This document shows, piece after piece, positions 4,576-62,200 of a stretch of DNA of 64,000 bases. The DNA comes from Euprymna scolopes (taxonomy: Eukaryota): the NCBI GenBank assembly GCA_053919585.1, contig CM132790.1; one strand, given 5' to 3'. The stretch's first letter is position 1, and every line of letters begins with the position of its first letter. The position numbers and the translations under genes are program-made. The notes under the pieces are model-generated. The model saw only the letters and a list, made by a program, of their open reading frames with translations. It was not told the DNA's origin and made no database searches.

Positions 4576-6442
4576 TGTAAGGATGAAATAATGAAATTAA
4601 TTTGTTGTGTCAATATAGTAGTTTATTCACACATATGTAAGGATGAAATAATGAAATTAATTTGTTGTGTCAATATAGTAGTTTATTCACACATATGTAA
4701 GGATGAAATAATGAAATTAATTTGTTGTGTCAATATAGTAGTTTATTCACACATATGTAAGGATGAAATAATGAAATTAATTTGTTGTGTCAATATAGTA
4801 GTTTATTCACACATATGTAAGGATGAAATAATGAAATTAATTTGTTGTGTCAATATAGTAGTTTATTCACACATATGTAAGGATGAAATAATGAAATTAA
4901 TTTGTTGTGTCAATATAGTAGTTTATTCACACATATGTAAGGATGAAATAATGAAATTAATTTGTTGTGTCAATATAGTAGTTTATTCACACATATGTAA
5001 GGATGAAATAATGAAATTAATTTGTTGTGTCAATATAGTAGTTTATTCACACATATGTAAGGATGAAATAATGAAATTAATTTGTTGTGTCAATATAGTA
5101 GTTTATTCACACATATGTAAGGATGAAATAATGAAATTAATTTGTTGTGTCAATATAGTAGTTTATTCACACATATGTAAGGATGAAATAATGAAATTAA
5201 TTTGTTGTGTCAATATAGTAGTTTATTCACACATATGTAAGGATGAAATAATGAAATTAATTTGTTGTGTCAATATAGTAGTTTATTCACACATATGTAA
5301 GGATGAAATAATGAAATTAATTTGTTGTGTCAATATAGTAGTTTATTCACACATATGTAAGGATGAAATAATGAAATTAATTTGTTGTGTCAATATAGTA
5401 GTTTATTCACACATATGTAAGGATGAAATAATGAAATTAATTTGTTGTGTCAATATAGTAGTTTATTCACACATATGTAAGGATGAAATAATGAAATTAA
5501 TTTGTTGTGTCAATATAGTAGTTTATTCACACATATGTAAGGATGAAATAATGAAATTAATTTGTTGTGTCAATATAGTAGTTTATTCACACATATGTAA
5601 GGATGAAATAATGAAATTAATTTGTTGTGTCAATATAGTAGTTTATTCACACATATGTAAGGATGAAATAATGAAATTAATTTGTTGTGTCAATATAGTA
5701 GTTTATTCACACATATGTAAGGATGAAATAATGAAATTAATTTGTTGTGTCAATATAGTAGTTTATTCACACATATGTAAGGATGAAATAATGAAATTAA
5801 TTTGTTGTGTCAATATAGTAGTTTATTCACACATATGTAAGGATGAAATAATGAAATTAATTTGTTGTGTCAATATAGTAGTTTATTCACACATATGTAA
5901 GGATGAAATAATGAAATTAATTTGTTGTGTCAATATAGTAGTTTATTCACACATATGTAAGGATGAAATAATGAAATTAATTTGTTGTGTCAATATAGTA
6001 GTTTATTCACACATATGTAAGGATGAAATAATGAAATTAATTTGTTGTGTCAATATAGTAGTTTATTCACACATATGTAAGGATGAAATAATGAAATTAA
6101 TTTGTTGTGTCAATATAGTAGTTTATTCACACATATGTAAGGATGAAATAATGAAATTAATTTGTTGTGTCAATATAGTAGTTTATTCACACATATGTAA
6201 GGATGAAATAATGAAATTAATTTGTTGTGTCAATATAGTAGTTTATTCACACATATGTAAGGATGAAATAATGAAATTAATTTGTTGTGTCAATATAGTA
6301 GTTTATTCACACATATGTAAGGATGAAATAATGAAATTAATTTGTTGTGTCAATATAGTAGTTTATTCACACATATGTAAGGATGAAATAATAAAATTAA
6401 TTTGTTGTGTCAATATAGTAGTTTATTCACACATATGTAAGG
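4576..6442. repeat. Tandem array of 31 x 60-bp units
   Basis: Unit TGTAAGGATGAAATAATGAAATTAATTTGTTGTGTCAATATAGTAGTTTATTCACACATA. All units are identical except a G>A at 6393; the array starts and ends with TGTAAGG. Confidence 0.99.
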
Positions 6443-14000: not shown

Positions 14001-14997
14001 CCATTCCTCACACATTTTACAAAAATGCTCATATTTTCTTTTTACTGCACCGATTATCCTCCATCATAGCCACATTTTCCCCGGTACAAGACAGAAAACA
14101 ATAACACAAAACAATAAAACATCTCTTATTGCCCTAATAATTGGGATAAAATACCATTTCAAAAGTTTGTGAAGCCCGAAATTTCTTTCTTTGTGTATTT
14201 AATATACCATTCGATTACTAGTCAAAATGTTTTCTTTTTAATACAAAAAATATCAAATGTGTAATAGAAAAATATAGGAGACCATAGTAAAGAAGAAAGG
14301 AATGCGATTAACAGTAGTTTTCAATTTCATGAGCACTTTTTTCTAAAACTTGTGTCACATGCTGGTAGACACGCCGACGCGTGGTCCTCTGTCTCATTTT
14401 TTAAAGCTGACATCGGGTAATTACGCTCAATAGTATCTTGTGTGCTTCTGCTCAAATTAGCTTCTCACCTATCCCAGCATTTTCCCTTTTCGTGTTCTGT
14501 TTTTAACTTTCCGTGCCTCTGTTACTCAACCTCTGTGATAACAGATTTAACATTAATAATTATAATAGAGATCAGTTTAAGCTTTTATTATGTGAAGAAT
14601 ACCAGGCAAATCCCGCTTATCCTGCTGGTTGGTGACTCAACTCTAAACAAGGAGAAAACAACTTCAGCTGAACTGATTTGAGTTTATAACAATATAATAC
14701 GAATAATGTTTTGTTAATGAAGCAATTTTTTTGGAGTTAAGCTTTAGTGACGATGGCCATCATTCACAGAACTCACCAGCGTGAGAAGATGGAAAATTAC
14801 CCACGGGGATGCTTGCGTAGGATTGTCAATTGACTAATCGGAACGAGTATGAGTGTGACGGGGCAATCTTTTGTTGACTGGAGTATACGTCCGATATCGT
14901 CTAAACCTACCTGTTACTTATCTATAAAATATCGTGCGCAAGCGAATTTTGACAGTAGAATTCCTGAGTAGATTTTGAACTGCAAGGCGATAAATAA

Positions 14998-15085
14998 TTC
15001 CCCGGGTTGGGAACATCAACTTCCCGGGTTGGGTTCATTAACTTCTCCGGGTTGGATACGTAAACTCCCCGGGTTGGGTACGTTA
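14998..15085. repeat. Four imperfect ~23-bp tandem units with core CCGGGTTGG
   Basis: Directly visible. Confidence 0.85.
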
Positions 15086-15752
15086 TGGTTGAGACGATCC
15101 TACTCAAATCTCGCTAAGCCTATTATGAAGCCACCCGACCAGCATAACTTTCAACGGTCTGTAGACGTCTCCGGAAAAAAGGAGAAATAGACTATACTTC
15201 ATAAGAGGGTAGAAGAAACGGTATTTTCCCACAAGAGAGGAAAGGACAGGCTGGCACGCTGCTGTTGATTTCAACGAGACTGTTATCCGATATTCAAAAC
15301 AGAAAGGTGTTTTTCTAACGGACTCTCAAACGTACGTGTTTTCATTCACGGTATATAAAAAAGGTATTACTTTAATGGACTATTAGACTGACGCCATTCG
15401 AATACATACCAAATCAATGTTTGTATCAGTGGCATTGTATATTGTACATATTTAAGAACTTTGTAATCATATAGTTCCTAACAACATAATCTTTTTATAA
15501 AACACGACCAGAGGATTTGATCGTTATTTTTTCTGTTGTTACTGCAACGTGCTTTAAATTACAGAAACCAAGACCAAGTCCGGGTGTGTGGTTCAGGTAT
15601 CTAATCTAGATCACAATGTTGGCGTGTGACACTTCCTTTGACTTGAAAATATCAATTTCTTTCGCCTGCTGGACTCTTCCTGCGGAGAGTGAAGTAACCA
15701 GAAGCAACTTACCCATCCATGTCCTCGTGCGGATTGAGCATGATCAAACTAT

Positions 15753-16083
15753 TGTAATGTATGAGCTGTTTGGGTGATCAGTGTAGCTGTTGGACTTTGT
15801 ATTTGATTTCAGATACACCTGGATTCGAACTCTTATACCGATGAAGACCCGTTATAGTCTTCGTTTGGTTATAATTGGTGCCGTGGGGCGCATGATTCTG
15901 ACTCTGGAGTATCCACCAACTTGCGGTTGAAGGTGAGGCCTTCTGATTTTCTTTTGATAGTGGTTGTCGTGTTTTGTTGATGGTGTAGGCTTTTGCTTTG
16001 AGTCGGTGACAGAGTAAAAGAAAGTAGTGGAAAAATAAAGACACAGAGAGATTGCAGAATTAAATAATTAACACTTTGGCGCC
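15753..16083 (+). mobile_element. Putative 5' LTR (15753-16073) and PBS of the env-bearing Gypsy element
   Basis: TGTAA...AATAAA (~16034)...TTAACA, then CTT-TGGCGCC (PBS-like), directly upstream of gag remnants. The LTR start is a best guess because no second LTR is present. Confidence 0.5.
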
Positions 16084-16369
16084 ATTAAACTGCCGATTAG
16101 CATGATAAATATCGTAAAATGAAATCAGGAGTCATATTTTAGGAAAAGAATACGTTAAAATTTAAAGTGGAATTTCTGTTATTAATTGAATAATTTTGAG
16201 AATAAGTGTCCCAGACCGAACCAAGAGTAAATTGATCGATAGCGAGGCAGAGAATAAGAAAAAAGCGAGCGAGTAGCATGTGTCTCACAGAATGGTTGGA
16301 TATAACCCAGGAATGGATAGAGGAAAAGGTGGAAGATGACCGTGGGTGACCAAAGGTGACAGAGGCTTA

Positions 16370-19020
16370 CAGAACCCTCCTCAGGAATTTGAGAATTCCC
16401 GAATTACGGGGAAACCAGAAAGAATTAGATAAATGGTTTTACGCTGTAATAAAAAAAGGTAATGTTCGGGCGGCAAAATGCAAGAGCTGATTTTGTTGAC
16501 ATATGAGGAGGCACAAGTACCAGTGGCACGGTTCATCGGGCGGAAATTCAAAGAAAATCTCAGGTTGTCTTGAAGGCAGCTGCGATCAGCATTGATGAAG
16601 GAATAGTCCAGCGAAAAGACTGCGATAGTTGCAGTTAGGGAGCCTATTGTAGCGAGCGGGAAGAGGTGATCACTAAACTGACGTGCGAATTTTGGGTCTG
16701 ACTATCAGAGCCTTTCCGGAAAATTAAATGAGAGAAAGTGGACCCATCAAAGTTCTGTTGGCTGATGTGCTTGGAGAGGCGTTAATCAGGGCATATGTCC
16801 TTCATGGTAATCTGGAGGAATTGGAGGAGGCCTTGGATTTGGCCTCAATCAGCGATCGTGTGTTATCAAGAATTTGAAGCAAACAATCTCGCAAGAATAT
16901 CGTAGAAGGTCACTAACGTACTAAAAGTCCCGACCGAGATCGGTCAACCGATCCCCACCCCGCAATCAAGCAGAACCGGTGTAGGATTGAGGAAGAGGTT
17001 TGTAACATCCGTAACAGCCCTCATAAACAGATCTCATGGCGATGAATCTGATGTGTCTTACTTGCCATACTGGTGGAAACCGAACTAAGGAGTGTCCTAC
17101 CCGACCGCAGCGGCAGGGGTCTAATTTGCCAGATTTGTAGAGAGTCTATGTACACGGCAAAACGGCGCACGGTAGGGGAAGACAGGGGGCGAGGCTATGA
17201 ACCAATAAATCGTAGGGTCCCGGACCACGTCCGAAAAATTAAGCCTTAAGGAAACGACAATAGGTAGCCTAAAGTATAAAGGGCAGGCAGCCGGAGTGAC
17301 CAAAAGATGCTTGCGTTGTGGGAATTTTGGCCAATCGGGTCATAGGCACAGGGCTTACCCGACAAAGTAGCGATGGCAAGGTGGAAGAAGGGGTCATTTG
17401 CGAATACAGTTTCTTTGTAGAGAGGTGACCCCATTGATAAAGAGATCGACAGAAGAAGAATTCCTGTTTTCGACCCCCGCTTATGGATGGGGGCGAAAGA
17501 GAAGACGAATGAAAGTCTGACACATTTAACAAATGGCCAGACTCTTACTTTCAGGTGATGGTGCGTATCGTCGCCTGACAGACAGCAGCCGGTTTCGATT
17601 GGTCGACCTACACTTGACCTAGACTGGAGGGTATGGCCCGCCTGCTCAATAAATTGGGCCGGATAGCCAGATATCTGAGGGTCTACGAAGCGATGGACCT
17701 ATGTTCAGAGCTAATACTGGAATGCAATTAACTTGGGGAGCAAAGACGAAACTTAGTTTTTACCCATTTGCCCTGATAGGATGGGGATTCCATTGGGAGG
17801 CCAACCCCCCCCCCCATCGGAAGCTCTCCTGTGATGACCCAGGAAGATGTAAAGATTACGTCCAGGACAGTGCTGTCCAGTAGATGAAGGATTACTGGGC
17901 GATGGGGTACAGATACTTATTGGTACCAGTTCAGAGCCTTGTTGGAAAAAGACGATGAGAGTCGAGAGGTGATGGTCAGCGATTCTGCGATGGACGGAAC
18001 TATGAGTTTTTCGTTACTATTAACAAATAATATATCTAAGGCCATCCGAAACAAAGGTGAAAGCAAGATCTGTTCGATTACCCTTTTGGAAGGCTATTTC
18101 ACGTAGGAATAATCAATTCCCACACCCTCAAGGAAAAGCCCTTCTAGAGTGACAGTGACTCGGAGGAGCCCAGGGTTATTATCGACCCTCATTGGGTCGA
18201 TGAAATCACCAAGGCCCAGCCGGACCAAGAATTGGTAAAAATAAAGGCCCTGGTTGATAGATGTCGGAGCCTGAAATACACCTTGTGTCAAGGCATCCTA
18301 CACTATATCTCAGGCAGAGATTGAGGTAAACTTGAAGATGGTTGTGCTTACGAAAAGAGAGATTTTGGAGAAGTCCTGTGAAAAACTGAGTCTGGACATG
18401 TTTGGTTCTTACCCGATGACAGAACGAAGTAACCAATAAAAAGTGAGCATCGCGGATTGGCTCACCAACTAGCAGGAAGTATATACTGTGCCGGACAAGA
18501 GGGTACAGATAGTACCAGGTTTGATTCTGAGAGAGATCTACCTTAGGTACGGGGCCCCAGAACAGCTGGTTACCGACTATGGCAGAGATAATTTAAATAA
18601 TATCATGTGTTACGCCTTACGAAGTTTTAGGTGCTGCAAGACATAACTTCCCCTTATCACTCTCATATAAATGTTAAAGGAGAAAGACATTGGCAGATAT
18701 TAAGGGCAAAATAGTCACGGAAAATCAGACTCGGTTGACGTGTTTCTGACGCAGGCCCTGGCTGCTGTGAAGTTTACAATTAATGAGAGTTCAGAGATTT
18801 CAATATTCCAGTTGGTATTTAGAAGGAACATATTCCTGCTCATTGATATCCTTACATATGTCTACAGTAAAAGAGAAACGCTCGGGTAAACTCGAACATG
18901 AAGGACGTCGTGACCAAAGTCGGAGATCTCATTTATTATAAGGTACAGGTCCGGGAAAGGAAGTTAAATAAATGATAAACCCCCTATTATCGGATCGTTG
19001 AGCAAACCGGCTTCTTTTGT
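16370..19020 (+). pseudogene. gag-pol: Degraded Gypsy gag and integrase
   Basis: Gag traces: LRIPELRGNQKELDKWF and knuckles CLTCHTGGNRTKECP and RCLRCGNFGQSGH. Integrase core: VSIADWLTN*QEVYTVPDKRVQIVPGLILREIYLRYGAPEQLVTDYG, then SPYHSHINVKGERH. GPY/F-like tail: KVGDLIYYK...KLNK**TPYYRIVEQTG. Confidence 0.75.
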
Positions 19021-19421
19021 GACCTGGGATCAGATTACTGAGATGATGAAGAGTTCATGTTAATGGCCTCAATCTTGCGAAGTTTGAGTTTGAGGTAGAG
19101 GCAACTCCGCGAAAGAAGGGGAGGAAGCAAAGGAAAGCGACCTTGGTTGAACCCTCTGAGAGGCAAACCTCTAAAGAGGAGGAAGAACCTAGCCAAGTTG
19201 ACCTGGAGGTGATGAAAGCCCTTAGGGGTAGAAAGGAGAAAAAGGCAACACCACGAGCCCAAAGCAGACTTAAACTGGGTATAATCTCCTGCTAGGGAAC
19301 ACCTCTGATAGGGAGCAAAACAGCTCGGGCTGGAAATTACTCTGAAAGCGGTTTGTGATAAAATCATAAGAATCGCTACGATTCTGATCATGCTTGGGAG
19401 AAAGAAGATGAAGTCTTATTT

Positions 19422-19592
19422 TCCCGATGACAGAACGAAGCAACCAATAAAATGTGAGCATTGCGGATTGGCTCACCAACTGACAGGAATTATATACTGG
19501 GCCGGACAAGAGGGTACAGATAGTACCAGATTTGATTCTGAGAGAGATCTACCCTAGGTACGGGGTCCCAGAACAGCTGGTTACTGACTATG
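19422..19592 (+). repeat. Internal duplication of the integrase segment 18410-18582
   Basis: About 170 bp of near-identical sequence (CCCGATGACAGAACGAAG...CAGCTGGTTAC(C/T)GACTATGG) at both positions. Confidence 0.92.
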
Positions 19593-20773
19593 GGACTGAG
19601 GGGAAGGCTAAGAGCTGAGACGACCAGCGAAGTGATAGTTACACAGAGGAACTGGTTGGTTACTCTAGTAAGTGACTTGGATTCTAGTGAGAAATTAATC
19701 CAAGAGTATAGAGAAGAAATTAATAGGTTCGATGAGGCTAGGCAGCAATTAACTAGCACTTATAAAGATATAGAGGAATATTCTCGAATATTAAACCCCT
19801 TAAAAGATGAGTTACGATCGTTAAGATGGTGATGGGCGAAGCAAAGTAATCATTTCGAGAAAGTTGAATTGGTCGGGAAACAAATCCAATGTGCATTAAT
19901 CCCTATAATAGCTCAATTCAGGTTAGTTGCCAAAAAGATATTGGGAGAATTAAACAACGAATAAATGATCTAGAAAAAGGCAAAGCCCAGATAAATAAGG
20001 AAAGAATCTTGATAGGAAATATTATGAGACAGAAAATAAGAAAGATCGAGAGATTATTGGTCAACACATATCTTGCGGGAAGAAGTTCAGAACGTCTCCA
20101 ATAAGATAGAGACGGAAATATTCAGAGAAGTATTTTTGCAGAAATACTTCCATATCCTAAATATGTTGAGCCGGTTGAGGCAGATTAGACAGTCATTAAC
20201 TATTTGGACTGAATATATAAAAGGCGCAGCTAGACGAACTAGCTTTGGGACATTTGTCTCCCAGTGTAGTAAGATCCGAACAATTACGAGAAGGGTAAGA
20301 GATCATAAGGCGGAAGCTGTCGTCTTGAACTGCCTTTGAGTCCAGAATGTAAACTCTTAGAGTATTACAAAAGCCTTGGAGGTTCTGCATATGACCTTAA
20401 ACTATATCCGATGGTGAGGCCCCAGCTTGCGGGCTTTAAGGCGTGTGGAGCCACCCTTTACTTGCCATTGCTCCCAGGTCCACCCTGACGGAGTGGTATT
20501 ACCTGTTAAGGTCCCGTGGGTTAAATAGAAACCGACGTGAAAAAAAATTCTATTTGAAAAAAAAATACTTCTATATCACTGGATTCGGCATTAAATAACC
20601 TGAAAAAGGTTGATATGCCGTAAAATAAAAACAGCCAACCAACCAACCAAAGCCTGGGATTTAGTGCACTGCTAGACAATAAGATACCAGTGTTTGTTTC
20701 TGTACCCCTCTGGGACTGGAGAATCGGATACGAAGTGTATCAGGTGATTACTTTACCTATACCCCTGCTCTAT
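19593..20773 (+). pseudogene. env: Envelope-like (baculovirus F/errantivirus env-type class I fusion) pseudogene, interrupted and 3'-truncated
   Basis: Ordered motifs after integrase: EVIVTQRNWLVTLVSDL; helical segment; QIQC|ALIPIIAQF; heptad KDIGRIKQRINDLEKG; QLDELALGHLSPSVVRSEQLR; LLEYYKSLG|FSALLDNKIPVFVSVPLWD...YEVYQVITLPIP. Confidence 0.7.
20381..20648 (+). mobile_element. 5'-truncated SINE (Nin-domain-like core) with an 11-bp TSD
   Basis: Core CCGATGGTGAGGCCCCAG...TTGCCATTGCTCCCAGGTCCAC...GGAGTGGTA..ACCTGTTA.GGTCCC and a (CAAC)n tail. TSD is AAAGCCTTGGA (20370-20380) / AAAGCCTGGGA (20649-20659). Confidence 0.75.
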
Positions 20774-21340
20774 TGTGTGATACATCGCACCCCTGGGGGA
20801 TTCATCTATACTTCGTCCCCGAGTTTGATGGTCCCTGTTGTCTCGGTCATCATGTTTGTCGGCTCAACCTTGGGATGTCTCCAGGAGTACGTGAATATCG
20901 ACAGGTGTGGAACTGTCTCTTGCACTTGTCCCGATCTAGGCGACGGATTGTACAAATAGACAGCTTGCTCGGGTGAGGTGGTATCCTTCTCTGTTACTGC
21001 CTTTATTGTCCGGTGGTTTCTGTCCACAATCTCGTTGTCACTGGCTCTATAGGTAGCTCTGAAGAATTGACGGATAATCCATTTCTTCATTACATCCGCA
21101 ACTATTACCGATCTAAATGCGATTCCGTTGTCGGATAGCAGCTCTTTCACCGGAGCTCGCTCCAGAGACACTATGTCGAAGACTGCCTCTATTTCACTAG
21201 ACTCTCCATAGGGCAAAGCGGCCGGGGCCGCAGTCGATCATTGTTATGTAAATCCCACCTCTTTAATGGTTGACAGCGACTGCCAATCTTTCACAGGTCC
21301 CAGTCACACTTAGTTCTCCAGCTTTGTGCGCGCTTGAAGG
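20773..21340 (-). pseudogene. pol: Gypsy integrase fragment
   Basis: YITMIDCGPGRFA, then ORF 20806..21216 ELLSDNGIAFRS...RATYRASDNEIVDRNHRTIK...IKLGDEV (rve D-D-E region). Confidence 0.85.
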
Positions 21341-21704
21341 TTGGGTTTCCCGTAATTGGATTACAATATTCAGAAGGTTGAAACGTAGACCTCTGATGTA
21401 GGAAAAGGAGACCATGTAGTGTAGTCTAAGTTGAAAGTTCTGGGTTTTATCTTGTTTTGATTATTGAGTTTATTTATAATATGAGTAGAGGGGTTGTGGG
21501 AGAGTTAAGCAGGGTTCTTTAGAGCAGGGCATTGTTGGGATAGACAGCTTATGTGAAAAATAATAAGTACAGAAGGAATAAATTTGAAGACCAATGAACA
21601 AGAAAACCATTGCAGTTCTCAGTAATATGACACCGAGAAGTTTCACCAGAAGTTACTGAATGTGTGAATTCTGTGGTTGTTTGTCGTTTTATAAAAACCA
21701 CAAA

Positions 21705-21805
21705 CAACCAAAGAATTCGCACATAAGCCTGAAAAATCCTAGAGTGAATGAAACGCGGAATATTCAGTGTAGCTTAATCGCCATATATATTTTATAACTT
21801 ACTAT
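21705..21805 (+). mobile_element. Solo copy of the Penelope pLTR hammerhead-like repeat seen at 36150-36468
   Basis: ATAAGCCTGAAAAATCCTAGAGTGAATGAAACGCGGAATATTCAGTGTAGCTTAATCGCCATATATATTTTATAA matches the 36.2-36.5 kb copies and also ends in (TA)n. Confidence 0.85.
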
Positions 21806-56697: not shown

Positions 56698-57711
56698 TGA
56701 AAAGATAGTTATTCTTTTATTCGCAATAGACTTAGTTTTTTCGGACGTACCTGTTTCCGTTTCGAAATTCATGTCAACGTCCCTACTGATTATGGCGAAA
56801 TTATTTTTCAATCTACCCGTTCACATTATTCTGTGGGTTTATGTCACTTTAAGTGATGATATGAAATAATTTTATTCAATTGCAGAGATCACATTATTAT
56901 TAACATCCCGTTCGGTCGCTTTCTTCATTATAGAATATAAATAGCTGTGCAATTCCTCTCATTACAGGTGAATGATTTAAGCGCTGCATCGCTCTCAGTT
57001 CGGTCTATTCTTGTGTTTATTAAATACTCCTTTGATCGCTGTTCTTTTCGCTCTGTGTCATACGTTCAATTTATTCAAAATGGAGCTGAAATAATTTCAT
57101 TAAATTAGTTCATACAAACAACAACAATGAATCAGAAGAGCCTAACGTATACATACAGGTTATAAAATCTAAGTTTCTCCTGTAGAGTATAAAACGGTAT
57201 TTATATAGTGTTGCACACACTTTTTGCTACCTAGACATATTACATAACTGATTAAGTCCAGAGTCTGGCTCATATATAACACTAGTAATAAGAAAAATCG
57301 ATATGGGTTTAATAAGTCCATGATATTCAAATGTCATATCAAACTTTAAGCTAAACTGGATTATTAGTTTACAAAATACAGTTATTTAGGTAAATCTTCT
57401 GAATTTCCTGTGCAAAGATTTCTGATAGAAAATATTATTCAAGTGCAGCAGTGACTGAAGAAGTTCTATTCGAACACTGATCAATATAGGCAAGGTGTGT
57501 ATGTGCGTAGTTTGACAACATGTTTCCATTCAGGTATATGTAATGGATTTTCCTTGTTTTATTAGTCTTTTTCAAAAACTTTTTTTTCCGACGAGACTAA
57601 TTAGCATTTCTTGTACAATATGTGTCTTTTATTTCTCGAGTAGTTAAGACTTTCGCATCAAATCATAATAGGGATTGGTTGGGCTTAATGTTTTTACATC
57701 TTTTCATAGTT

Positions 57712-58472
57712 TTTACATATTTTCATTTTTACAGTTTGGTTTGTAACGTTTTACATCTTTTCATTTTTTCAGTTTGGTTTGTAACGTTTTACATCTTTTC
57801 ATTTTTACAGTTTGGTTTGTAACGTGTTGCATCTTTTCATTTTTACAGTTGGGTTTGTAAGGTTTTACATCTTTTCATGTTTATAGTTTTGTATGTAACG
57901 TTTTACATCTTTTTATTTTTATAGTTTGGTTTGTAACGTTTTACATCTTTTCATTTTTATAGCTTTGTTTGTAACGTTTTACATCTTTTCATTTTTACAG
58001 TTTGGTTTGTAACGTTTTACATCTTTTTATTTTTACAGTTTGGTTTGAAACGTTTTACATCTTTTCATTTTTACAGTTTCGTTTGTAACGTTTTACATCT
58101 TTTAATTTTTACAGTTTAGTTTGTAACGTTTTATATCCTTTCATTTTTATAGCTTTTTTGTAACGTTTTACATCTTTTTATTTTTACAGTTTGGTTTGTA
58201 ACGTTTTACATCTTTTCATTTTTATAGCTTTGTTTGTAACGTTTTACATCTTTTCATTTTTACAGTTTGGTTTGTAACGTTTTATATCTTTTCATTTTTA
58301 CAGTTTGGTTTGTAACGTTTTATATCTTTTCATTTTTACAGTTTAGTTTGTAACGTTTTACATCTTTTAATTTTTACAGTTTGGTTTGTAACGTTTTACA
58401 TCTTTTCATTTTAACAGTTTGGTTTGTAACTTTTTACATCTTTCCATTTTTACAGTTTGGTTTGTAACGTTT
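57712..58472. repeat. Minisatellite of ~20 x 38-bp units
   Basis: Consensus TTTACATCTTTTCATTTTTACAGTTTGGTTTGTAACGT with scattered variants. Confidence 0.97.
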
Positions 58473-59244
58473 TAGGAGCATCTATACTAATGACATAGTA
58501 CATACGAACATAATAAGATATGTATGTTAAATGTAAGGCCTTTAAAAATACCACTTACGTAATTTATCGTATTAGTTGGGCATCAATTAATGATAAATTG
58601 CTTGAAGGTGTGTTTTAAAGGGTTGTAGACAGCACAAGAACAGTCTTCCTTTTGAAAATTCAAATATTTCCGATTTACACAAAATCTGCTCTACATCTAT
58701 TGAACATCAATTAAAAAAAATTCCACAAATTTTATTTTATTCTTTGGTTTAAGTTTTACATTTTTAACTTTTTTTGCAAAAGTTAAAATCATTTAATGAA
58801 TTTTGTATAACACTCTGAATATAAATTATAGACATAAATATCATAGCGTGATTGTGATTTGTATCTTATTAGTCATGATATAATGTTAGCATTGTGAGGT
58901 ATTCAATGATCGGTTCATTTGTTTAGGATTTAATCCCGTACAAACAAATATATAAACACGTACAGGATATAACGATTTCTTTATAAACATAAACATGAGT
59001 TATTCAGCATGTGTGTATTTAATACTGTCTTTCTATGCTTAACATAAAATATATTTCGATAGTTTTGCAGTATATTATAGTAGTAATTATAATAGTCATN
59101 NNNNNNNNNNNNNNNNNNNNNNNNNNNNNNNNNNNNNNNNNNNNNNNNNNNNNNNNNNNNNNNNNNNNNNNNNNNNNNNNNNNNNNNNNNNNNNNNNNNN
59201 NNNNNNNNNNNNNNNNNNNNNNNNNNNNNNNNNNNNNNNNNNNN

Positions 59245-62200
59245 AACACAAAACAAATAATAGAGTTTATGAACTAAAAAAAAACAAAGCTCCCATCATT
59301 AGGGACCAAGAGCAGAAGAAATTAAAAATGAAAACAGAGAAAGTTAACAAGCTCCTCCCACACGTCTAAACAATTTAATTTACTAAGGCACCAAGATCGT
59401 AAGTATAAAGTTCAAAACAGTAAAACAGCCATGGAATAATGGACCGACAAAACTTGGATGGAAATGAGGCTAGAAAACCAAATCAACAAACATAAAAAGA
59501 AGCCAAAATGATAAACAGGAAGAAAGCGACATGGAGAAAATTGAAAATTGGAAATGTGACCATAATCAAGAAACAGGAAGATCTGAATAAAGAAAATAGC
59601 AGCAAAATAAGGGCGACCGAGATTATATAGATTCAAATCAGAACAATGCAAGCAAAACAGGACATTTGAAAATAATGAAAGGCAATTCTACCAAAACGTG
59701 AACGGAGGAAAAACAAAAACAGAATGACCAAACATAGCAGAAACAAAACTCTAGTCAGATATGGGGAGAACGAGAGGAACATAACAGAAATGACGAATGG
59801 CTGAAAGACATGAAAGAAGAGCTACAACAAATCGAAGGACGGTGAATGAAATCATCAATGAAACTCTAAAGAAAACCATACGAAAAATGGCTAACTAGAG
59901 AGCACCAGAGCACGACGGAATACATGCATACTGGTTCAAAATAACTCACAACGCAACACGAAAGACTAGCCAAAACATGAGAAGATGTATACAAGAAACA
60001 AACGTGACAGATTGGATGACAAAAGACAAAACTACACTGATACAGAAGGACACAGGGAGAAGAACCGCCCCCAGCAAGTATAGGTTTATCACGTGCTTAC
60101 CCACTATGTGGAAAATATTAACAGCACAACTGACGGAACCAATCTACCACTCCTTAATTATCGTGGAGTTCTCCCCGAGGAACAGAAAGGATGCCAGAAA
60201 GGAAAGAGAAGAACACATGATAGATCATAAGATCCTAAAGGAGATAAACAGAAGGAGAAAGAATTTAGCCATGGCATGGATCGACTACAAAAATGCGTAC
60301 GACAGGATCCCACAAACATGGATAATAGAATGCTTAAAAATGTATAAAATACTAATCAGGATCATCAACGTAATAGAAAATACCATAAAAACATGGAGAC
60401 TGGAATTGACAGCTGATGGACAACACATAACAGAAATTAACATACAAATAGTCATCTTCCAAGCAGACTCACTATCACTATTGCTGTTTATAATAGCCAT
60501 GGTACACCTGAACAATATACTAAGAAAGTGCCAAGCTGGATACAAGTTCTCTTATACAGAGGAAAAAATGAACCACCTAATGTATATAGACGACCTGAAA
60601 CTTTTTGCAAGGATCGAAAAAGTACTGGGGACACTAATAAACACTACCAGGATCTTCAGTCAGGATATCCAAATAGAATTTGGTGCGAAAAAATGCGCAC
60701 TACTAGTTATAAGGAAGGAAAAACTAGAGACATCTGAAGGCATGGAACTACCCAACCAAACGGAGATGGGGGAACTAGGGAACAAGACGCCTATAAATAA
60801 CTGATAGTTCTAGAAGCATACGCCATCAAAGCCAGAGAAATTAAAGAGAGAACTGGAAATAAAAAATCTAATCAGAACAGGAAAACTTCTAGAAACTAAA
60901 TTATATAGCAGAAACCTAATAAAAGGTATAAATACATGGGCAGTATCACTAATAAGATACTAAGGATCGTTCATAGGATGGACCAACTAAGAACTGAGAC
61001 ACCTCGATCAGAAGATCAGAAAACTCATAACCATGCACAATACACTACATCCAAAGGACGATGTTGACCGACTCTACGTGAAAAAGAAAGAGAACTAGTC
61101 TGTATAGAAGACTGTGTGCATGACACAAACAAAAAATAATCTGAAAGATGCATAACGCAGAAGACGAAAGAATTAACATGGCAGCGAAGGACACTGAAAA
61201 AATTGACAAAACAGAAAACAAAGAGATAAAGGACAAGACAAGAAAAGCAAAATGGAAAAAAGCAACTACATGGAAGATTCATAGAGATGACAAAACATTA
61301 GAATACCGAAAACACTTGGACATGGATGCGGAAATGCTGCATACGCCGAGAAACTGAATCTCTAATAACCGCAGCACAAGATAACTCGATGAGAAAAAAC
61401 CATATCAAAACAAAGATCAAGAAAACACAAGAAAACAATAAATGCAGACTCTGTGGGCAAAGAAACGAAAGGATGAATCATTTAGCAAATGAATGCAGCA
61501 AACTGGTCCCAAAATAATACAAGAACAGACACGATTAAGTAAGAAGGGTAGTCCGCTGGGAATTATGCAAACAACTGCATCTCTAACGCACAGACAAGTG
61601 GTACAAACATAAGCTGGCAACAGTACTTGAAAATGAGAATCACATAACCTATGGGAGACGAACTTACAAACTCATAAACCCATCCAAACAAGAAACCAAA
61701 TTTATTAATAATTAACAAGAAACAAAAATCCTGTCAAATCGTAGAATTTGCTTTTCCAGCCGACCACAGTGTGAATATCAAAGAAAAGGAGAAACGGAAC
61801 AAATACACAGAGCTAGCCAGAGAGCTGAAAGGGATATGGAACGTGAAGAAAATCAAAAATATACCTATAAGAGCACTAGGAACAATCCCGAAAAACTTTG
61901 ACGGAGAAATTGGAATCAGAGGAATGGCTGGAAAAATATAAGGAGCAATAATAATGAAAACAGCTTTAATATTAAGGGAAACCCTTTAATGTGGAGACTA
62001 ACACACATGAACCACAAGCGCAGGCCAGACAAACTGCAGCAGGAACAAAACATGAGGCGCTACAGTGAGTCAAGAAAATTAAAGCTGCATACCTATAAGT
62101 TCTCTAACCCCAATCTCCCATAACTACGTCCTTGCCCCGCCCCAAAAAGAATGAAACCGAAGTAGAGTAAAGGAGGAAAGAAAAAACCGAAGAGTGAGCA

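Follow-up and report, generated by a model that had tools for sequence, protein, structure and literature searches.

A broken Ty3/Gypsy insertion in a likely decapodiform cephalopod genome retains the front half of an env gene, and its unbroken relatives encode a predicted F-type fusogen

Positions 15,753 to 20,773 of a 64,000-nucleotide stretch of contig CM132790.1 (assembly GCA_053919585.1; the whole stretch is hereafter the window, C8:86366001-86430000 in the assembly searched here) had been predicted to hold a fossil Gypsy element with an envelope gene (env). The locus raises the question of whether the scattered reading-frame fragments at the env position are the remains of a real gene that belongs to this element and, if so, what such a gene encodes. 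The reading we favor, at a probability of roughly 0.92, is that the locus is a broken, old Ty3/Gypsy insertion with the first half of an env, that its unbroken relatives encode a predicted class I fusogen of the F type, and that the genome is likely that of a decapodiform cephalopod.

Reading the window in three frames made the motifs of the original prediction visible, in the order given there. The window copy was mapped by tblastn with natural open frames of relatives from the same genome. Searches of the same-genome assembly (5.9 Gb, 925 contigs) gave 49 DNA matches to the window element from the best 40 of 111 candidates, and 150 protein matches from the best 150 of 494 candidates, some of them open frames of 500-690 amino acids (aa). 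The decayed long terminal repeat (LTR) element occupies 14520-20767, and its parts and the fragment that adjoins it are as follows.

14520-15873, plus strand: 5' LTR of about 1354 bp, with a TG start and a TATA end
15876-15887, plus strand: primer binding site of the tRNA-His(GUG) type, matching at 10 of 12 nucleotides; TGGTGCCGTG starts at 15876
16254-17104, plus strand: gag remnant with stops and frameshifts and a knuckle remnant at 17054 (tblastn with natural gag open reading frames (ORFs), E down to 2e-21)
17284-18070, plus strand: decayed N-terminus of pol, with a knuckle remnant and the protease region (residues 23-332 of the pol of locus L029, E 3e-21)
18070-18091, plus strand: deletion junction at which about 520 codons, for reverse transcriptase (RT) and RNase H, are gone; the L029 pol match jumps from residue 332 to 852
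18091-19217, plus strand: pol bridge and integrase (tblastn E 3e-54 against the integrase of locus L025)
18380-18853, plus strand: integrase core
18865-19011, plus strand: C-terminal GPY/F-like module, 67% identical to a relative
19420-19593, plus strand: 174-bp duplicate of integrase 18409-18582, 93% identical, occupying the expected 5' end of env (signal peptide)
19620-20389, plus strand: N-terminal part of the env remnant, in five frame pieces (tblastn; profile positions 28-298)
20390-20647, no strand assigned: high-copy short repeat inside env (4656 candidates)
20648-20767, plus strand: last env piece (VPL, Y.V..LP.P; E 2.4e-8), 65% identical to residues 305-344 of the L025 env
20762-21340, minus strand: fragment of another high-copy element with an integrase core, adjoining the cut end of env (~20762)

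The LTR-like end and the primer site had been recognized correctly, and the element itself begins about 1.2 kb before the 15753 proposed as its start. Dispersed LTR copies align from 14519-14533 to 15872-15877 at 68-76% identity, and locus L090 holds a copy with two LTRs of this family. The LTRs of that copy are only 80.4% identical to each other over 1367 columns, and the subfamily of the window element is therefore old. No second LTR copy, which would be the 3' LTR, was found within the 64-kb window, and without it the target-site duplication of this insertion is unreadable. The 12-mer used for the primer site (His_GUG) was taken from PMC13524379 (Chary and Hayashi, eLife 2026; Supplementary file 1), and full-length relatives carry the same primer site directly after the LTR. 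Further downstream, the gag remnant is 42-50% identical to open relatives; of the gag with two knuckles originally proposed, the gag stands, and CxxC remnants occur at 17054, 17127 and 17308, none of the three being a complete CCHC in a knuckle scan. The pol of L029 has a protease domain by Pfam. The integrase does have the GPY/F-like tail ascribed to it, and the corresponding tail of the relative matches SH3_Tf2-1 and Integrase_p58_C, both below threshold; most of the H2C2 zinc finger is gone. The protease remnant, the RT/RNase H deletion, the 174-bp duplication, the repeat that splits env and the truncation at ~20762 had all been overlooked. We considered and rejected the RT deletion as a shared non-autonomous form, as its junction was spanned by none of seven other matches.

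Assignment to Ty3/Gypsy draws on the relatives together with the window. In open relatives the pol order is protease, RT, RNase H, integrase; in the window the protease precedes the integrase and RT/RNase H is deleted. LTR pairs and 4-bp target-site duplications are seen in relatives, and the window has the 5' LTR and the primer site. The window copy thus keeps one LTR (1.35 kb) together with the tRNA-His-type primer site, remnants of gag, protease and integrase, and the first half of env. It has lost RT and RNase H, both the signal peptide and the 3' half of env, and the 3' LTR, its remaining frames being broken. Because it has neither continuous gag, pol and env frames nor a full RT and integrase, it is a fossil of its lineage and not an intact element.

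The env remnant was assessed against a profile of 610 positions built from 21 natural env proteins. Six window pieces match this profile colinearly over positions 28-333, four of them strongly (E 1.5e-21, 3.9e-8, 8.6e-8 and 2.4e-8) and two weakly (E 0.05 and 0.3), and the top score among 200 shuffles of the env region was 0.8 bits. The part at 19620-20389 (hhalign probability 96.7, E 3.5e-10) contains, in order, an F2-like block, a decayed cleavage position, the fusion-peptide region, a long heptad helix, LGHLSPS and YYK.L, which bears out the order of env pieces in the original prediction. The predicted cleavage site is borne out in position only: the window holds no intact basic motif there and the position is assigned by placement, and the motif is present in all five open relatives checked. 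The repeat that interrupts env has 39 other scored copies, 86-88% identical and nearly full length. Env stops at about profile position 333, and the window copy therefore has no stalk or membrane anchor. The fragment at the cut end (1021 candidates, 75-82% identity; rve E 0.17) has a minus-strand integrase piece only 24-26% identical to the integrase of the env-bearing family. A protein-database search with the longest window env piece (114 aa) gave no match among 121 candidates.

Linkage of env to this integrase was evaluated at 31 loci picked through env or integrase matches, with the env query finding a match at 27 of them and the integrase query at 17. Both are present at 16 loci, and in every one the integrase is encoded upstream of env and on its strand, at a distance of 0.9-1.9 kb in 15 loci and of 6.3 kb in one with a nested insertion. 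Two decayed relatives, L039 (with L065) and L067, align colinearly with the window across gag, integrase and env, with 63-81% DNA identity. The integrase that best matches that of the window (C12:144.90 Mb) has one of the closest env matches about 1.6 kb downstream of it. A tree of env sequences places the window copy inside a clade of 17 own-genome rows with 100/100 support. These observations support the conclusion, also reached originally, that env belongs to this integrase-carrying element. Six loci run from gag to env without a pol match (L023, L028, L073, L074, L090 and L091).

What env encodes was examined in the open relatives. All five open env ORFs tested pass the Pfam Baculo_F cut-off (E 1e-19 to 2e-8), and a basic motif precedes a hydrophobic AV/SV-I/L-P-I block in five of five open frames checked. 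A C-terminal hydrophobic segment is present in each of the three frames that reach that far, and the N-termini are hydrophobic by eye. By sequence, the env profile matches two PDB entries named fusion protein, 9w4d (E 1e-13) and 9w4c (E 1e-12). An ectodomain model from 127 sequences, across which the cysteines and the cleavage and fusion-peptide residues are near-invariant, reached a predicted local distance difference test score (pLDDT) of 84.1 and a predicted template modeling score (pTM) of 0.75. Foldseek placed the F protein of respiratory syncytial virus (RSV F) at the top for this relative-based model (E 3e-10; template modeling (TM) score 0.35 by query length), all rows listed being RSV F. 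In VIA-align, RSV F again came first (Z 11.5, 375 aligned, root-mean-square deviation 5.0) and human metapneumovirus (hMPV) F third (Z 10.7). An earlier model from 21 sequences was poor (pLDDT 61, pTM 0.35) and its match to baculovirus F (E 3e-22) is given less weight. Profile and modeled fold together support the original prediction of a class I fusion protein, namely a fusogen of the baculovirus-F / paramyxovirus-F type. At E<1e-30 the env family counts 827 cluster representatives; four of 20 clusters checked were named, three of these with an organism (Lottia, Haliotis and Argopecten), in line with the molluscan relatives mentioned in the original prediction. The named env relatives are gastropod or bivalve proteins at ~32-33% identity, the RT is 62% identical to a Haliotis protein, and the protein-database matches of the relatives include 77%-identical entries. 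A squid or cuttlefish is the likely host in view of these molluscan relatives, of the 46 chromosome-scale contigs of the assembly (C46 measures 220 Mb and C47 2.5 Mb, with C1-C45 taken to be as large as those fetched) and of a decapodiform karyotype of about 46 chromosomes (PMC12682272).

The same genome holds copies of very different ages. Five full-length relatives measure 10.4-12.4 kb and have LTR pairs 97.4-99.9% identical. A search of the genome with a gastropod env, whose stricter first look makes the counts a floor, returned at least 66 matches, with 26 stop-free frames of at least 650 aa, 11 of them in one 668-aa subfamily. Six copies of this subfamily were examined: five have LTR pairs 99.9-100% identical and lie in different flanks, their internal parts being 99.5-99.9% alike. 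In this subfamily, a distant one from the window copy, two of the six have the continuous gag-pol and env frames that define an intact element. One young subfamily has thus multiplied recently, and the copies range from old fossils (same-family LTR pair 80% identical) to copies with identical LTRs. Among 18 copies fetched of a second, 684-aa subfamily, chosen for long env, which biases the count, and with three sharing one flank, 12 lack most of pol and show two recurring deletion forms at separate target sites. The pol-less copies (within L107-L131, together with the six gag-to-env loci named above) run LTR-gag-env-LTR, with common deletion points and different target sites, and are non-autonomous forms that retained env. 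The intact copies suggested for search are therefore present, and no solo domesticated env was found among the loci fetched, a search that was not genome-wide.

Ratios of non-synonymous to synonymous divergence (dN/dS) in env are 0.26 in two pairs of one young subfamily (95% intervals 0.16-0.45 and 0.11-0.58), and those in pol are 0.14-0.15. In the 684-aa subfamily, where differences are mostly post-insertion, the same method returns 0.41-0.63, which serves as an approximate neutral baseline. In comparisons across subfamilies, synonymous change is saturated and the proteins are 44-56% identical, with env frames still open at 650-692 aa. Since the value of 0.26 stands against a baseline of 0.41-0.63, and since diverged proteins remain open at saturated synonymous sites, these sequences are read as pointing to purifying selection on env over the long run. 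Selection on env in the pol-less derivatives was also considered and is unsupported, with a pN/pS (the corresponding polymorphism ratio) of 0.41-0.63, similar to the 0.55 of full-length copies, and a star tree whose private changes are near-neutral (107 non-synonymous, 4 stop, 48 synonymous).

Of 24 RNA runs listed, four were aligned to one young copy (L031:487-9680), three of them raw-read runs sampled at 4-13% each. These three gave 45, 71 and 48 reads on the element, of which only 2, 4 and 4 are at least 99% alike, and the fourth gave 63 contigs. The first mate lies mostly on the sense strand of the element, which in the usual stranded libraries indicates antisense RNA. No sense env RNA and no env splice joint was found in the three raw-read runs, whose tissue is unspecified and whose sampling does not imply silence. 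The one-strand reads could be precursors of silencing RNA or intronic read-through.

Several of these results weigh against the fossil env-bearing insertion with F-type relatives. The fusogen call depends on relatives that are 29-65% identical in protein to the window, and Pfam returned nothing at E<0.05 on 12 read-through window frames, so that the suggested Baculo_F search succeeded in the relatives and failed in the window itself. The TM-scores against F proteins, 0.33-0.40 by query length, are modest; in the VIA-align list, helical bundles reach Z of about 10, but cover only ~100-150 residues. The integrase phylogeny that had been called for was built, and its 76 columns leave the window unplaced; 11 of the 27 env-bearing loci have no match to the integrase core query, and at L071 part of an integrase follows env. 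Env dN/dS is 0.69, 0.40 and 0.39 for three of the five close pairs, with intervals that include or approach 1. The RNA reads are few, come mainly from diverged copies, are likely antisense and lack a splice joint.

How far could these points favor another account of the locus? The env-like pieces might be a chance reading of decay, or an unrelated insertion behind an ordinary envless Gypsy integrase, and the missing Pfam match would fit this, as would the duplicated integrase piece that adjoins env in place of a normal spacer and the two other insertions that interrupt or cut the region. A profile match at E 1.5e-21 against a shuffle maximum of 0.8 bits, the order kept at 16 of 16 loci and the C12 integrase match just upstream of an env match weigh against it, the colinear L039 and L067 contradict it, and we regard it as highly improbable. 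We give hardly any more credence to the window env being a host-domesticated solo gene or the descendant of one. Domestication of an insect retroelement env, Iris, is reportedly on record, and some env-bearing loci here do lack pol; the window env, however, sits within an LTR element and is broken, interrupted and cut short, and those pol-less copies that were examined retain gag, LTR pairs or both, several with target duplications of their own.

A more serious alternative, though still an unlikely one, accepts the env-bearing lineage and makes env a passenger: the family would multiply within germ cells like an envless retrotransposon, env being open only through recent bursts. The three raw-read runs without sense env RNA or splice are compatible with such a passenger, and so is the 684-aa subfamily with its star tree and near-neutral private changes. 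Bursts alone account poorly, however, for open frames of 650-692 aa that persist across subfamilies 44-56% identical with saturated synonymous sites, for a dN/dS of 0.26 in one subfamily, or for cysteines, cleavage and fusion-peptide residues that are near-invariant over 127 sequences.

If the env-bearing lineage was mobile in the way its parts suggest, RNA from the 5' LTR would be primed by host tRNA-His, for which the primer site is seen, and then reverse transcribed, and integration would produce the 4-bp target duplications observed in relatives. In some subfamilies a -1 frameshift at a GGGAAAC-type site would likely yield Gag-Pol, a slippery heptamer of this type being present in three of four gag/pol overlaps checked; in another, Gag-Pol would be read from a single long frame. 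The Env protein is predicted to be a type I membrane protein with a likely cut at R/K-x-K/R-R; judging from the families involved, cleavage would free a hydrophobic fusion peptide ahead of the long heptad helix. By analogy with Drosophila gypsy, Env may let particles pass from neighboring cells into the germ line, a tentative proposal. More doubtful still is the full scenario, in which squid or cuttlefish would carry an env-bearing lineage that is still mobile today after lasting over many waves, spreading to the germ line by an F-type fusogen with pol-less gag-env satellites riding along; if true, it would provide a non-insect animal in which to study env-driven germ-line invasion. The window copy can carry out none of these steps and is inert, given the losses listed above and its broken frames.

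The locus had been put forward as a candidate for an undescribed system, which does not hold. Intact Ty3/gypsy elements with F-type and gB-type env have been published for most animal phyla, molluscs included, in PMC13524379, and the kind is not new. Supplementary file 1 of that paper holds ~46 mollusc elements, a figure obtained because 'Mollusca' occurs 92 times at two per row, and the 30 mollusc rows examined are all Bivalvia or Gastropoda and all ENV_F. Within the main text and supplements, 'Cephalopoda' occurs only in Supplementary file 6, where 15 screened assemblies have a blank annotation; the prefilter counts there are non-zero in three decapodiforms (Doryteuthis 3 POL / 16 ENV) and zero in 12 octopod rows. 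No description of env-bearing Gypsy elements in cephalopods was found in a literature search that did not extend to subscription journals, Repbase or Dfam. The novelty lies in the host record, namely a likely cephalopod genome with several env subfamilies, one of them recently multiplied.

The relatives resemble the mollusc 'ancient errantiviruses' described in PMC13524379 in having gag-pol-env between LTRs, an F-type env with a predicted furin site and fusion peptide, multi-copy young families and a tRNA-His(GUG) primer site, which is frequent in the mollusc rows there. As in the F-type elements defined there, env lies downstream of the integrase, and its F homology is seen by profile and structure through the relatives. 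None of the entries in the curated table of that paper is labeled cephalopod, and the window copy, unlike those entries, is not intact. With insect errantiviruses (Drosophila gypsy, ZAM, Idefix) the elements share the three-gene layout and the F-type env family (Pfam Baculo_F). According to PMC13524379, insect errantiviruses differ in using mostly tRNA-Ser, -Lys or -Leu, in a separate POL clade and in a pseudo-RNase H, and germ-line infection has been shown for Drosophila only. Troyka (PMC12440569) was considered as an identity for the element and rejected, since it has no env and has CG ends.

Predicted fold and element order are shared with baculovirus F and pneumo-/paramyxovirus F, from which the env proteins, known here from sequence and model, differ in their 7-16% identity, in being encoded by an LTR element and in that no partner attachment gene was seen with them. 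The avian EAV-HP is a pol-deleted, non-autonomous endogenous retrovirus. The pol-less copies are like such pol-deleted retroviruses in their LTR-gag-env-LTR structure, with at least two forms, shared deletion points and separate target sites; unlike them, they belong to Ty3/Gypsy and not to Retroviridae, and their env has no sign of selection in the deleted forms.

The window fossil is ordinary in itself, and its value is as a pointer to the young relatives, which carry the interest. With several env subfamilies, this genome fills a host gap in PMC13524379, which screened 15 cephalopod assemblies and curated none. It supports the view that F-type env has long traveled with pol in molluscs. Env-driven infection outside Drosophila is posed as an open question in PMC13524379, and cephalopods now offer material for it.

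Among the database matches, an uncharacterized abalone herpesvirus protein (A0A145VUZ2) ranks eighth in BFVD (E 4e-17) against the low-confidence env model, which may point to kinship between these env genes and an F-like protein of a mollusc virus. Pol proteins of this kind, 59-63% identical, are filed under Candidatus Thiodiazotropha (P0257, P0302, P0306, P0329 and P0335). Candidatus Thiodiazotropha has a bivalve host, and these entries are likely host DNA in metagenome bins.

Ten copies of an env element lie on contig C46 between 23 and 50 Mb (L075-L084), with 3' flanks 93-98% identical over 0.7 to several kb. An apparent enrichment of this subfamily on C46 (10 of 28 loci, nominal P 4e-8) was rejected: because all ten share the same 3' flank, they are one insertion multiplied in a segmental duplication. 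C46 is the longest contig seen (220 Mb) and is numbered after the 71-Mb C45. Tandem repeats of ~60-76 bp, variable in number between copies, are found in the integrase-env interval of one subfamily and in the leader of another, at the following positions.

L036:2624-2917: ~60-76 bp tandem repeats
L037:6774-7375: ~60-76 bp tandem repeats
L032:8161-8506: ~60-76 bp tandem repeats

Elsewhere in the window, a 31-bp inverted repeat (90% complementary, 3-nt loop) lies at 21660-21724, just past the element. Two tandem arrays occur at 4576-6442 (60 bp x 31 copies, 99%) and 57711-58474 (38 bp x 20 copies, 91%). A 301-aa open frame at 59899-60801 on the plus strand presumably resembles the start of a non-LTR retrotransposon reverse transcriptase.

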